24,601 nucleotides of DNA, taken from the NCBI GenBank assembly GCA_031431175.1, contig JANPCY010000003.1, forward strand, positions 1 to 24,601, read 5' to 3'. Positions within the stretch are counted from its first letter, which is position 1. Every line of letters begins with the position of its first letter. The DNA is from Steroidobacteraceae bacterium. Its GTDB lineage: Bacteria > Pseudomonadota > Gammaproteobacteria > Steroidobacterales > Steroidobacteraceae. Positions 3,978 through 22,232 of the stretch are shown one piece after another. A program made the translations under genes and the position numbers. The notes under the pieces are model-generated. The model was given only the letters and a program-made list of their open reading frames with translations. It had not been told where the DNA came from and ran no database searches.

Positions 3978-4080
3978 CCTTGCCACTCTTGGCGGGCAAC
4001 CATAAGCAGCTTAGCTTGCTAGCGTTCCGCACAGATTGCGGCGAAACTCTGCAAATGGCCGATAAGCCAAACCTGACACC
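3065..4080. mobile_element. Putative transposase unit bounded by imperfect 19-bp inverted repeats
   Basis: Left arm GGTGTCGGGATTGGCATAT (3065-3083) matches the reverse complement of 4062-4080 (GGTGTCAGGTTTGGCTTAT) at 16/19. The arms enclose the transposase gene and its upstream region, which lie antisense inside an otherwise co-directional gene run. Confidence 0.65.
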
Positions 4081-4948
4081 ATTTATCGCTGGTCTGTCCT
4101 GTTGGCGCGGCCCGGTTGATCCCGAGCCCGTTGCGGGCGGCATCACCAACACGAATTTCAGCGTCGTCGACCAGGGCCGGCGTTATTTCGTCCGGATCGG
4201 CAATGACATTCCGGTGCACGGCATCGTTCGGGCGAATGAACTGGCGGCGAATCTCGCGGCGCATGCGGCGGGGGTGGCGCCTGCGGTCATTCATTCAGAG
4301 CCGGGCGCGCTGGTGCTCGAGTTCATCGCCGGCCGGACGTTCTCGCCGGCCGATGCGCGCGACCCGCGCAATCTCGAGCGCATCGTGGATCTGCTGAGGC
4401 GCTGTCATCGCGGCATTCCCGAATTCCTGTGCGGAGCCGCCGCGATGTTCTGGGTGTTTCATGTCGTGCGCGACTATGCGCATACGCTCACCGTCGGCAA
4501 CAGCCGCCATCGCCCGCGACTGCCGGAGCTGCTCGGCACCGCTGGGCGCCTGGAGAAGGCGCTCGGCCCGGTCGATATCGTCTTCGGTCACAACGACCTG
4601 CTGGCGACCAACTTCATCGATGACGGCGCGCGTCTCTGGCTGGTGGACTGGGAATATGCGGGATTCAACTCGCCGTTATTTGATCTGGCAGGGCTTGCCT
4701 CGAACAACGAGTTTCCCGCGGACCTGCAAGTGCGGCTGATCGAGAGCTACTTCGGGCGACTAGTCGACCGTGAGCTGAGTCTGCGATTTGCCGCGATGAC
4801 TGCCGCATCGCTCTTGCGTGAGACGATGTGGAGCATGGTGTCGGAGATTCATTCAAAGCTTGATTTCGACTACGTCGCCTACACGGCCACGAACTTTGCG
4901 AGATTCGAGTCGGCGCTCACTGCCTTCGACGATCTGGAGGGCGCATGA
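4055..4948 (+). CDS. Choline/ethanolamine kinase-family phosphotransferase
   Basis: GGITNTNF ATP-binding loop, Brenner motif HNDLLATN and choline-kinase motif VDWEYAG. Start placed at ATG 4055 (the ORF track runs back to a TTG at 3980). The stop overlaps the next start (ATGA 4945-4948). Confidence 0.85.
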   Translation: MADKPNLTPFIAGLSCWRGPVDPEPVAGGITNTNFSVVDQGRRYFVRIGNDIPVHGIVRANELAANLAAHAAGVAPAVIHSEPGALVLEFIAGRTFSPADARDPRNLERIVDLLRRCHRGIPEFLCGAAAMFWVFHVVRDYAHTLTVGNSRHRPRLPELLGTAGRLEKALGPVDIVFGHNDLLATNFIDDGARLWLVDWEYAGFNSPLFDLAGLASNNEFPADLQVRLIESYFGRLVDRELSLRFAAMTAASLLRETMWSMVSEIHSKLDFDYVAYTATNFARFESALTAFDDLEGA

Positions 4949-18493: not shown

Positions 18494-20581
18494 TTGAAAG
18501 GTAATTCTACAGCCAGGAAAGAGGCGTCCCCCGGGCGCTCGAACGAAGAGAATCGGCGGCGTCAGCTCATTGAAGTGACCATCGACAGTCTCGCAGAACT
18601 GGGCTATCCCGGCACGACCCTTGTGCAGATTGCCAGCAGGGCCGGCGTTACGCCGGGCCTGGTCGCGCATTATTTCGCCGACAAGGACGGCCTGCTCGCA
18701 GCCGCGTTCCGCACGCTGGTGCGTCGAGTCGGCAAACAGGTTCGCATGCGCCTGCCAGAGGTAAGCGCTCCGCGCGACCGGATTCATGCACTCATCGACG
18801 GCCATCTGGCTCCCGAGGAATTCGATCAGCGCAGTGGCAGGGCGTGGCTTGCATTCTGGAGCCAGGTGCCGCAGGTCGAAAGTCTCAAGCGCGTGCAGAC
18901 CGTTTACCAGCGCCGCCTGTTGTCCAATCTTCGCAGCTCCCTTAAACGGCTGGTGCCGGCGCAGGAAGTGCACGGTCTTGCCGCAATCATCGCCGCAATG
19001 ATCGACGGGGTGTGGTTGCGGGCAGCATTTTCCGATTGGCGCGAGGCGGATAGCAGCAGTGCGCGCGCGCTGGTGAGTGCCTTTGTGGATCGTCATCTCA
19101 CGGACAACGCGCGTGCCGACCATCCGATCGAACCAGCCCCTGCACGGGCCAATCATCCGGTTGCGCCCGTCGCGGGCGAGCGCCTGGCATCGCTGAATCC
19201 TGCGACGGGCGAGCTGCTCGGTCATGTCCCCGTGGCCGGCGTCCAGGATATCGAGGCAGCAGTACGGGCCGCACGTGCAGCACAACCTGCGTGGGCGTCG
19301 ATGAGTGGGGCGGAACGCGCCCGTATCCTGCGCCGCGCCGCCGCGATCCTGCGCGCGCGCAATGACGAACTGGCGACGCTCGAGACCCGCGACACCGGCA
19401 AGCCAATCCAGGAGACGCGCGTCGTCGATGTCGTCTCAGGCGCCGAGTGCCTCGAGTATTTCGCCGCGCTCACGCAGAGTGCAGCGGGCGAGCATATCGA
19501 CCTCGGCCCGCAGGCATTTGGCTACACGCGCCGCGAGCCGCTCGGCATCGTCGCCGGCATCGGCGCCTGGAACTATCCGCTGCAGATCGCCTGCTGGAAG
19601 TCCGCCCCCGCGCTCGCCTTCGGCAACGCGATGATCTTCAAGCCCGCCAGCCTCACGCCACTCTCGGCCGTCGAGCTCGAGAAGATCTACCACGAGGCCG
19701 GCCTGCCGCCCGGCATCTTCCAGGTGGTGCAGGGCCATTCCGACACCGGACGTCTGCTGACGCGCCATCCGGAGATCCGCAAAGTATCGCTGACGGGGTC
19801 GGTTGGTACCGGCAAGGCGGTCATGAAAGATGCCTCTACCACGGTCAAGGCAGTGACGCTCGAACTCGGCGGCAAGTCGCCGCTGATCGTCTTTGAGGAC
19901 GCGAAACTCGACCAGGCCGTTTCCGGCGCGCTGCTCGCCAATTTCTATTCCGCGGGCGAGGTCTGCTCGAACGGCACGCGCGTCTTCGTGCACCGCAACG
20001 TCAAGGACGAGTTCCTCCGCAAGCTTGCCGCGCGCGTCCGCGCCATGCGCATCGGCGACCCCATGGACCCGGCGACGCAGGTCGGCTCGCTTATTTCCGA
20101 AGAGCACATGCAAATGGTCCTCGGCTACATCGCTCGCGGGCGTGCGGAAGGTGCGCGCGTGCTCGTGGGCGGCAATCGCCGTACTGATGGCGCGCTCGCA
20201 AAGGGATTCTTCGTGGAGCCGACGGTCTTCGATGGCTGCCGCGACGACATGAGCATCGTACGCGAGGAGATTTTCGGCCCGGTGATGTCGGTGCTGGAGT
20301 TCGAGGACGAGGAAGAAGTCATCGGGCGCGCGAACGCCACCGAGTTCGGCCTGTCCGCTGGAGTTTTCACCAACGACCTCAACCGTGCGCATCGCGTGAT
20401 CGCGATGCTCCAGGCCGGAACCTGCTGGATCAACCACTACAACGTAACCCCGGTGGAGCTCCCCTTCGGCGGTGTCAAGCTCTCGGGACTCGGCCGTGAG
20501 AATGGCCGTGCCGCGATGGAGCATTACACGCAGCTGAAGAGCGTTTACGTCGCGAAAGGCGATGTCGATGCGCCCTACTGA
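18494..20581 (+). CDS. betI-betB: Fusion of BetI (TetR-family choline-responsive repressor) and betaine aldehyde dehydrogenase BetB
   Basis: N-terminal Tet[17 protein letters not shown]...[28 protein letters not shown] and BetI-type WLAFW, RRLLSNL and [10 protein letters not shown] Pro-rich linker follows, then ALDH motifs [34 protein letters not shown] (catalytic Glu), GEVCSNG (catalytic Cys), EEIFGPV and [20 protein letters not shown] at 18482-18486 favours TTG 18494; the ORF is open from 18455. Confidence 0.9.
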
Positions 20582-22232
20582 GGTCTTCGATTTCGTGATC
20601 GTGGGCGCCGGCTCCGCCGGTTGCGTACTGGCCGACAGGCTCACCGAGGATGGCAGGAACAGCGTGCTGTTGCTCGAGTACGGCGGCTCAGACCGCTCGA
20701 TATTCGTGCAGATGCCAACGGCTCTTTCAATTCCGATGGGCATGAAGAAGTACAACTGGTTCTATCACACGGAGCCTGAGCCACATCTCGGCGGACGTCG
20801 AATGCACACGCCGCGCGGCAAGGTTCTGGGCGGTTCATCCTCGATCAATGGCCTTGTTTACGTGCGCGGCAACCCGCAGGATTTTGACCGCTGGGATCAG
20901 GAGGGCGCCACGGGCTGGAGCTATGCGCAGGTGTTGCCGTACTTTCGTCGCGCAGAAACGCGCGCCGAGGGCGGCGATCATTACCGCGGTGATCGGGGCA
21001 AGCTGCAGACCTGCTACGGCACCGTGGCCAATCCATTGCACGCTGCCTGGCTCGCGGCCGCAGGCGAAGCCGGTTATCCGCACACGGGCGATATGAACGG
21101 TTTCCAGCAGGAGGGCTTCGGGCGCATGGACATGACGGTCGGGGCCGGGCGCCGCTCGAGCACCGCCAACGCCTATCTGCGCCCGGCGTTGAAGCGGGAC
21201 AACCTGACAGTGCGCACGCACGCGCTGGCGACAGGCATCCTGTTCAATGGCAGGCGCGCGGCTGGCCTGCGCTATCGCAGGGGTGACGCGCTGCACACGG
21301 TACACGTACGGCGTGAACTGCTGGTATGCGGCGGACCGATCAACTCACCGCAATTACTGAAACTTTCCGGACTCGGACCGGCCGCCGAACTCAAACAGCA
21401 CGGCATTACCGTCACGCGTGACATGCCGGGTGTCGGCGAGAACCTGCAGGATCACCTGGAGTTCTATTTTCAGGTGGCCTGCAGGGAGCCGGTCACTCTT
21501 TACTCGGCGATGAATCCATTTGCCAAGGCGCTCATTGGCGCGCGTTGGCTCTTGCGCAAGGACGGGCTGGGCGCCACCAATCATTTTGAAACCGGCGGCT
21601 TCATCAGGAGCCGCGCGGGCGTACGTTATCCCGACATTCAATATCACTTCCTTCCACTGGCGATCACCTACGACGGCTCCACGCTGGCGCGGGAGCACGG
21701 TTTCCAGGCGCACGTCGGGCCGATGCGCTCAAAGAGCCGCGGCTGGGTGCGTCTTGCGTCGGCGAATCCGCTCGACAAGCCGAAGATATGCTTCAACTAC
21801 CTGAGCCACGCCGACGACTGGCTGGAAATGCGCGCCTGCGTGCGCCTGACGCGCGAAATCTTCGCGCAGCCGGCATTCGAGCGCTACCGCGGCCGCGAGA
21901 TTCAACCGGGCGCGGATGTCGTAACCGACGAACAGATCGACGCATTTATTCGCGACAAGGCCGAGACCGCCTTCCATCCATCCTGCACCTGCAAGATGGG
22001 CAGGCAGGATGACCCAATGGCGGTGGTCGACGCGGAGGCACGGGTGATTGGCATCGATGGCCTGCGCGTCGTGGATTCTTCGATCATGCCGTCGATCACG
22101 ACCGGCAATCTCAACGCGCCGACCATCATGCTGGCCGAAAAAGCGGCGGATCACATCCTCGGCAAGCCGCTGCTGCCGGCCGCCACGCAGGGTTACTTCG
22201 TGGCGCCCGACTGGCAGACGTCACAGCGCTAG
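20568..22232 (+). CDS. betA: Choline dehydrogenase (GMC oxidoreductase)
   Basis: [73 protein letters not shown] and [12 protein letters not shown] 20568 is better spaced from AAAGG than ATG 20562; the gene overlaps the betB end. Confidence 0.95.

Follow-up and report, generated by a model that had tools for sequence, protein, structure and literature searches.

GlpQ splits glycerophosphocholine (GPC) into glycerol-3-phosphate and choline. Here we examined a 24,601-nt stretch of DNA (hereafter the window), which is the whole of contig JANPCY010000003.1 (C3) from a Steroidobacteraceae metagenome-assembled genome (MAG) of 2.47 Mb and 81% completeness, and in which an exported PF04185-family phosphoesterase (PE) and a TonB-dependent receptor (TBDR1) lie among genes for glycerol and choline catabolism. 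The window resembles the combination of GlpQ/GlpT (and Ugp) with ChoXWV and BetIBA, in which a periplasmic enzyme splits GPC and both halves are imported and oxidised. Unlike the GlpQ/GlpT route, it contains neither a GDPD diesterase nor a GlpT-like gene and carries PE and the receptor instead, and GlpK, not import of glycerol-3-phosphate, appears to feed GlpD. A sequence-only reading of the window had proposed that one locus at 4055–22232, organised like a polysaccharide utilization locus (PUL), dismantles both halves of a choline phospholipid after TonB-dependent uptake.

The closest experimentally supported parallel is PusCD. In Flavobacterium johnsoniae, the TonB transporter complexes of the Pus loci act on glycerophosphoinositol (bioRxiv 10.64898/2026.09.03.749221). 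Like the window, these loci cluster an outer-membrane TonB-dependent transporter with phospholipid head-group esterases. However, the Pus loci belong to Bacteroidota, include a SusD-like lipoprotein, target glycerophosphoinositol and inositol phosphate and serve phosphorus acquisition, whereas the window has no SusD partner, uses another enzyme family and is embedded in carbon and nitrogen catabolism. Pseudomonas aeruginosa consumes all parts of phosphatidylcholine (PC) by means of PlcH, lipases, GlpD/K, BetAB and Fad (PMC4113454). The window shares with this route a PF04185-family enzyme, glycerol catabolism and choline oxidation, but it has no lipase or fatty-acid genes, and the P. aeruginosa route has no TonB receptor. 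To our knowledge, the P. aeruginosa genes for PC use are not clustered in one locus. PlcH itself is a Tat-exported protein of ~700 aa with C-terminal domains.

Results

The receptor–PE pair occupies the GlpQ–GlpT slot

Sixty-one genomes of the window's genus were compared, and eight loci were fetched from members that lack PE. Three PE-less genomes flagged as unpublished (G005, G011 and G471) enter the tallies for DMGDH-like, BetA, GlpT and GDPD genes, and their omission alters no conclusion. PE was found in 8 of the 61 genomes. The left part of the PE-less loci consists of an OPA-family MFS transporter gene, HAD and inositol-monophosphatase (IMPase) genes, and then divergent GlpD–GlpK, although the HAD, IMPase or GlpK gene is missing from some of them. 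The right part carries, on the opposite strand, a GlpT-like gene, a GDPD-family gene, ChoV and ChoXW, followed by divergent BetB–BetA. In all eight fetched loci, the GlpT-like gene and an exported GDPD lie between glpD(K) and choV; in PE-less loci without choV, they adjoin an APC-family permease gene instead. The GDPD protein of these relatives has a signal peptide and scores 154 bits with PF03009, and the GlpT-like protein scores 605 bits with TIGR00712, slightly below the cutoff of 633. In locus L150, stop and start codons overlap at both choV/glpQ and glpQ/glpT, indicating translational coupling. Judged by its predicted gene functions, the PE-less arrangement is a textbook GPC locus.

The receptor–PE pair, at times together with a gene for a GFA-family protein, fills exactly the GlpQ–GlpT slot in the eight PE genomes. 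A GlpT-like gene was present in none of these eight vs. 30 of the 53 others, and a strong GDPD in none vs. ~31 of 53; the PE genomes retain only a ubiquitous 264-aa GDPD-like ORF. Neither a GlpT-like nor a GlpQ-like gene was found in the window and its 81%-complete genome. Moreover, each of the 12 assessable PE-clade loci has GlpK immediately 5′ of PE or of the receptor–PE pair; in three of them (L006, L015 and L083), PE follows GlpK with no receptor in between. By contrast, the presence of GlpK varies among PE-less loci. Non-orthologous displacement would be the simplest account of this swap. Since PE takes the same slot, excludes GlpQ and always has GlpK just upstream, it most likely replaces GlpQ on choline and glycerol phosphoesters and yields free glycerol.

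The arrangement recurs in at least eight species-level genomes of the genus and is therefore beyond chance. Counted from match tables, BetA orthologues (at least 72% identity) occur in ~40 and GlpD orthologues (at least 62% identity) in ~26 of the 61 genomes. In one bin, MFD02809.bin.1.112, the locus was observed on three contigs (L012, L013 and L014) with 83–84% identity to the window, which suggests a mixed-strain bin and not a true triplication.

PE belongs to a distinct AcpA-like subfamily

PE is a 571-aa protein that exceeds the PF04185 cutoff (212 vs. 23 bits), has no further Pfam domain and carries a signal peptide without a twin arginine. An ENRTFD metal-site motif of the ENxxFD type spans residues 37–42 and is invariant in 12 homologues. 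The best solved relative is Francisella AcpA (2d1g, 88 bits), and the architecture is AcpA-like. PE thus shares fold family, similar length, the ENxxFD motif and export with AcpA and the Burkholderia acid phosphatases, but it differs from AcpA in its score to 2d1g and in falling under the cutoff of the acid_phos_Burk/AcpA model TIGR03397 (198 vs. 363 bits), and it represents a distinct subfamily whose members almost always come with a TonB receptor. It also fell under the cutoff of the PC-PLC model TIGR03396 (124 vs. 580 bits). The secreted PLC/AcpA-family esterase of the sequence-only reading was thus borne out as to the PF04185 family and the Sec signal peptide, but not as to either curated subfamily.

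The PE subfamily is strongly conserved, with 64–74% identity across classes. A rapid maximum-likelihood tree places the Steroidobacteraceae PE sequences together in one clade (support 98), with betaproteobacterial sequences around it, which fits a single acquisition. The tree was midpoint-rooted, and the direction of PE transfer is therefore not proven by it. The receptor–PE pair was probably acquired from Betaproteobacteria.

The receptor–PE pair is a portable module

Among 80 genomic loci with a PE homologue, 59 loci outside Steroidobacteraceae were assessable, and 54 of these have an adjacent TBDR1 homologue (40–50% identity) on the same strand. Most belong to Oxalobacteraceae, Gallionellaceae, Sulfuricellaceae and Rhodocyclaceae. 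The receptor–PE pair is a portable, mostly betaproteobacterial module. Outside the family, genes for TonB, ExbB, PhoX and a HAD-like hydrolase are among those that occur near it. L046, which comes from an unrelated lineage, has genes for GlpK and a HAD-like hydrolase 5′ of the pair and co-directional with it. A GDPD gene stands divergent from the pair in a Janthinobacterium locus (L062); since this was the only such locus, GDPD was rejected as a general neighbour of pairs outside the family. Two contigs carry labels at odds with their PE loci: L007 (CAZPUJ010000089.1), labelled Planctomycetaceae, is nearly identical there to Steroidobacteraceae loci, and L041 (JBLHLW010000036.1), labelled Candidatus Paceibacteria, to Oxalobacteraceae loci. 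Both are probably mis-binned.

Pho-box-like sites were scored against the consensus CTGTCAT-N4-CTGTCAT. Allowing at most 3 mismatches, 12 of 45 loci outside the family have such a site 5′ of the receptor, compared with 9 of 265 windows drawn at random from these loci, and none was found upstream of the receptor in the Steroidobacteraceae clade. No Pho box was found in the 208-nt region 5′ of the window receptor, and all matches within the window (at most 4 mismatches) fall in coding sequence. A different motif, the 19-nt TGTATGAATACnACAACAG, is instead found in the same position in L076, L013, L007, L009 and L011 with 0–2 mismatches. This pattern suggests that the imported module may have been rewired away from phosphate control. 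No other copy of the motif was found elsewhere in the loci or the genome, and its single occurrence in the genome means that no regulon can be inferred from it.

No close or informative solved relative of TBDR1 was found. The SusC/RagA model scored 32 bits on it against a cutoff of 368, and Pfam searches revealed no SusD-like gene in the window. A PUL in the strict sense is therefore not what the window contains, and the PUL comparison stands as a loose analogy; the resemblance to proteobacterial TonB-receptor loci is one of layout alone. The second receptor, TBDR2, is convergent to betA and is kept beside it in L006, L010, L011, L144, L145 and L151. It persists in PE-bearing and PE-less relatives alike and might, from this distribution, be the older receptor of the GPC locus.

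Gene content of the window

Genes were called by Pfam and NCBIfam profile searches with inspection of start sites (Table 1). All genes named by the sequence-only reading were confirmed at their places by family scores, but the limits that it had drawn are too narrow, as the kinase operon also takes in the ProV-like ATPase and the fused double permease at 10–3038, and the second receptor adjoins betA beyond the right-hand limit. The matching OpuAC binding protein is encoded on contig C343 of the same genome, along with a HisN-like, IMPase-family phosphatase, an OPA-family MFS transporter and a phosphatase of the HAD type; relatives have these genes in the same order immediately 5′ of the operon. 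An Rfam search of the window found no RNA element, and matches in a promoter and terminator scan of the window were no more numerous than in shuffled sequence.

Table 1. Annotated features of the 24,601-nt window
Feature	Position	Strand	Basis or remark
ProV-like ABC ATPase, second betaine/choline-type importer	10..1044	+	TIGR01186 proV 326 bits
Fused double ProW/ChoW-type permease	1044..3038	+	Two BPD_transp_1 domains; ChoW model 408 bits
RAYT (REP-associated tyrosine transposase)	3048..3986	-	PF01797, NF047646
Choline/ethanolamine-kinase-family kinase (CK-like)	4055..4948	+	PF01633 65.5 bits
DMGDH-like FAD/folate N-methyl amine dehydrogenase	4945..7398	+	DAO + FAO_M + GCV_T + GCV_T_C
GlpD, aerobic glycerol-3-phosphate dehydrogenase	7412..8944	+	NF008899 703 bits, cutoff 360
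GlpK, glycerol kinase	8938..10431	+	TIGR01311 680 bits, cutoff 590
Conserved 19-nt motif TGTATGAATACnACAACAG	10569..10587	+	~50 nt 5′ of TBDR1 start
TonB-dependent receptor TBDR1	10639..13020	+	Plug + barrel domains
Exported PF04185 phosphoesterase PE	13092..14807	+	PF04185 212 bits; Sec-type signal peptide
GFA-family protein (glutathione-dependent formaldehyde-activating enzyme family)	14804..15232	-	PF04828 83 bits
ChoV, choline ABC ATPase	15260..16477	-	TIGR03415 514 bits, cutoff 484
ChoX binding protein fused to ChoW permease	16471..18267	-	TIGR03414 442 bits, TIGR03416 394 bits, one frame
BetI (TetR) domain in frame with BetB	18495..20581	+	TetR_N, TetR_C_6, Aldedh; NF009725 766 bits
BetA, choline dehydrogenase	20562..22232	+	TIGR01810 811 bits, cutoff 732
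Second TonB-dependent receptor TBDR2	22243..24600	-	Plug + barrel; 5′ end lost at contig end

The glycerol and choline genes are assigned by scores above curated cutoffs. GlpK and GlpD both exceed those of their equivalog models, as do BetA (811 vs. 732) and BetB (766 vs. 593), and all three parts of ChoXWV exceed their NCBIfam cutoffs (ChoV 514 vs. 484, ChoX 442 vs. 379, ChoW 394 vs. 363). The start of glpK overlaps the stop of glpD, and the start of ChoV at 16477 was picked from the translation. A tblastn search with the window GlpD found no second copy in the genome (81% complete), as any other match spanned at most half of the protein. ChoX forms the N-terminal side of the fusion with ChoW, and the fusion is considered real because three further genomes (L006, L011 and L076) also have this frame without interruption. 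In long-read bins (L010, L012 and L014), this frame contains frameshifts that look like assembly errors. The GFA gene is present in L007, L009 and L076 and also in the PE-less L144.

At 18495–20581, a complete BetI domain reads into BetB with neither a stop nor a BetB start codon between them. Five relatives have a short betI helix-turn-helix remnant 5′ of betB, with a clear ATG start of betB in three of them, which indicates that betI is ancestral, was mostly deleted in the relatives and is fused in the window alone. As it is seen in a single MAG, the fusion could possibly be a small indel or assembly error at the usual ATGA junction. In two PE-less loci (L146:11240-12778 and L147:12544-14085), an APC-family amino-acid-type permease replaces ChoXWV 5′ of betB; by family, it is a candidate for another carrier of choline or ethanolamine. 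A BetI-box-like operator, GAATGATCGTTC, shared by the choXW/betB promoters of relatives, was rejected as evidence of co-regulation because its only extra matches (L007 and L009) fall within the RAYT coding region.

The kinase and DMGDH-like genes belong to a separate operon

The CK-like kinase exceeds the PF01633 cutoff (65.5 vs. 29 bits), and the motifs HNDLLATNF and LVDWEYAGFN are present in its translation. Its best solved relatives are 3dxq and LicA (4r77), the nearest being an uncharacterised structural-genomics entry. The stop of the kinase gene overlaps the start of the DMGDH-like gene, the product of which scores 560 bits to human DMGDH and conserves both the flavinylation His and the catalytic His of HQY. 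The RAYT gene splits an otherwise contiguous operon between permease and kinase. It is missing from that place in L141, L143 and L098, and in L141 and L098 the fused permease and kinase genes are immediate neighbours. Where the kinase gene would be expected, L007 and L009 have a related RAYT (75% identical). The ProV-like ATPase adjoins the fused permease and the kinase in L098, L103, L104, L141, L143, L172, L174 and L178.

The kinase-linked DMGDH-like gene is present in the eight PE genomes of the genus and in three others, whose contigs end directly after it. More widely, a DMGDH-like gene stands beside the kinase gene in six of the eight gammaproteobacterial loci fetched and in nine of ten loci from across the phylum; in the tenth (L174), it lies a few kb off beside a second kinase paralogue. 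The kinase-adjacent DMGDH-like proteins are 61–74% identical across classes. L172 and L178 have the full unit of five genes (binding protein, ATPase, double permease, kinase and DMGDH-like), and L174 has all five in a different order. A HisN-like phosphatase gene is found near the kinase operon in six loci, and a DeoR-family regulator in five, directly beside the kinase in three. Regulators of the DeoR family typically sense phosphorylated intermediates. The kinase family is very abundant in metagenomes, and its named holders include Hyphomicrobium and Methyloceanibacter. By this conserved gene order, the kinase and DMGDH-like genes form a separate operon conserved across Proteobacteria.

The DMGDH-like enzyme had been read as the step that follows BetAB. 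This assignment did not hold: the genome encodes four such paralogues, the window enzyme being 33–38% identical to the other three by tblastn and 34–39% in a second comparison, and its gene lies in the separately conserved operon of kinase and ABC importer. Another paralogue adjoins a BHMT-like gene on contig C32, and by family this is the pair expected to convert betaine to dimethylglycine and then to sarcosine.

In a distant member of Steroidobacteraceae (L024, PE 69% identical), PE follows genes for a HisN-like phosphatase, a glutamine-synthetase-like protein, an aldehyde dehydrogenase and an Fe-alcohol dehydrogenase, and lies opposite BHMT-like, DMGDH-like and kinase genes. These neighbours are suggestive of the amino-alcohol chemistry of head groups. 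The cluster of glutamine-synthetase-like, aldehyde dehydrogenase and Fe-alcohol dehydrogenase genes was observed on contig C180 of G000 and at L024:6002-9911, where it sits between the HisN-like phosphatase gene and PE. It resembles gamma-glutamylation routes for amines and could, by this analogy, serve ethanolamine oxidation.

Discussion

On balance, we consider it probable that the window encodes a composite catabolism of GPC-type head-group phosphoesters (GPC, phosphocholine and perhaps lyso-lipids) that arose when the receptor–PE pair displaced GlpQ–GlpT. In the ancestral form, an exported GlpQ-like diesterase would convert GPC to glycerol-3-phosphate and choline, the former being taken by GlpT and GlpD and the latter by ChoXWV and BetBA. 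For the present form, we infer the substrates throughout, the cargo of the receptor and the site at which PE cuts from the observed gene identities, synteny, slot replacement and mutual exclusion. TBDR1 would carry the ester into the periplasm, where the Sec-exported, AcpA-like PE would release free glycerol, choline (possibly via phosphocholine) and phosphate. With import of glycerol-3-phosphate lost but GlpK kept, the glycerol half now probably enters as free glycerol, which could arise either by a PLC-type cut (to glycerol and phosphocholine) or by full dephosphorylation (to glycerol, choline and phosphate). Glycerol would then pass through GlpK and GlpD, choline through ChoX-W/ChoV, BetA and BetB, and GFA may deal with formaldehyde. 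The co-acquired operon (binding protein, ABC importer, CK-like kinase and DMGDH-like enzyme, with the HisN-like phosphatase nearby) would handle a related N-methylated amino alcohol. The proposal that one locus consumes both halves of a choline phosphoester thus finds support in the PE-less relatives, whose locus is a GPC locus, but its extension to intact PC does not; since no lipase or fatty-acid genes are found at the locus, intact PC is a less likely substrate than GPC or phosphocholine. The head-group genes around PE in L024, GlpK 5′ of the pair in L046 and the GDPD gene divergent from it in L062 agree with the composite reading.

Several observations weigh against this composite reading. 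The receptor is missing in the three loci in which PE comes right after GlpK, as if it were dispensable. The PE subfamily reaches neither the AcpA-type nor the PC-PLC curated cutoff, which leaves its function a predicted one, and the kinase has no role in a simple GPC model. The OPA-family MFS transporter persists in PE genomes (C343 and L006) and could import glycerol-3-phosphate or another organophosphate. Gene absences are provisional at 81% genome completeness, and because the PE sequences form one clade, the displacement was probably one event, so that the exclusion of GlpT and GDPD in 0 of 8 PE genomes is suggestive and not statistical proof. Furthermore, no glp, cho, bet, kinase or DMGDH genes were found near the 54 pairs outside Steroidobacteraceae, and these homologous pairs look, from their upstream sites, phosphate-regulated. 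The linkage of the modules, expected across genomes and MAGs, accordingly holds in at least eight genomes of the genus but not outside Steroidobacteraceae.

A rival reading takes the receptor–PE pair to be a mere phosphate-scavenging module of the Pho type that came to stand beside choline and glycerol genes, where it would free phosphate from various organophosphates when phosphate is limiting, without any specific tie to choline esters. In 54 of the 59 assessable loci outside the family, the pair is kept without glp, cho or bet genes, its neighbours there are TonB/ExbB, PhoX and HAD-like hydrolases, and Pho-box-like sites occur in 12 of 45 upstream regions vs. 9 of 265 random windows. Burkholderia responds to phosphate limitation by inducing AcpA and PLC proteins (PMC13700237), and Pho-regulated TonB receptors have been reported in Caulobacter (PMC11208175). 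In the Steroidobacteraceae clade, however, a different conserved motif takes the place of any Pho-box-like site 5′ of the receptor, the pair sits precisely in the GlpQ–GlpT slot and excludes both genes, and PE stays attached to GlpK even where the receptor is absent. We regard scavenging alone as rather unlikely. The two readings are compatible, since phosphate is freed in both. Still less probable, in our view, is that PE acts as a general periplasmic phosphomonoesterase that converts glycerol-3-phosphate and similar esters to glycerol for GlpK, with the choline genes as merely inherited neighbours. Its AcpA-like length and architecture, AcpA as its best solved relative, the loss of the GlpT-like gene with retention of GlpK and the occurrence of each module alone elsewhere would all fit such a role, but it would leave unexplained the joint loss of the diesterase GlpQ and GlpT, the coupling of choXWV to glpQ–glpT in relatives and the position of PE among amino-alcohol head-group genes in L024. 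Catabolism of choline and glycerol phosphoesters through displacement of GlpQ–GlpT is the reading that we prefer.

The kinase operon calls for an explanation of its own. Flavin enzymes of the DMGDH type need a tertiary or secondary amine, which excludes phosphocholine itself as the substrate of the DMGDH-like enzyme; an attractive candidate would be a phosphorylated di- or mono-methyl amino alcohol. Eubacterium limosum phosphorylates choline before demethylation, using MthK/MthB under anaerobic conditions (PMC12155760). As in that system, the operon pairs a kinase gene with a demethylating enzyme that would pass methyl carbon to folate, and an analogy between the two is put forward here as a hypothesis. 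The E. limosum system differs in being anaerobic, corrinoid-dependent and built on another kinase family, whereas the window has a flavin enzyme of the DMGDH type that would not attack a quaternary nitrogen. More speculatively, and with considerable doubt, the operon could encode an aerobic 'kinase-first' route, in which a choline-derived N-methyl amino alcohol would be phosphorylated, demethylated as the phospho-ester with its carbon passing to folate, and then dephosphorylated or lysed to ethanolamine-level compounds. No description of an aerobic operon of kinase and DMGDH-like genes was found in the literature searched.

When eukaryotic and some bacterial membranes break down, GPC and phosphocholine are among the most common soluble products, and both contain carbon, nitrogen and phosphorus. 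Within the genus, nature has in effect run a swap experiment on their use: the same locus relies either on GlpQ–GlpT or on a TonB receptor and an AcpA-like enzyme, and this swap gives a substrate hypothesis for a large, receptor-paired phosphoesterase subfamily of freshwater and soil Betaproteobacteria. If our reading is true, TonB-dependent capture of organophosphates would extend from Bacteroidota, the only group in which it has been shown so far, to Proteobacteria. The analysis also exposes a widespread operon of kinase and DMGDH-like genes that may hide a new catabolic route for methylated amines. If the kinase-first route is true, it would be the oxic counterpart of the E. limosum MthK/MthB pathway and, together with PLC-type release of phosphocholine, would explain the insertion of the operon into the GPC locus.

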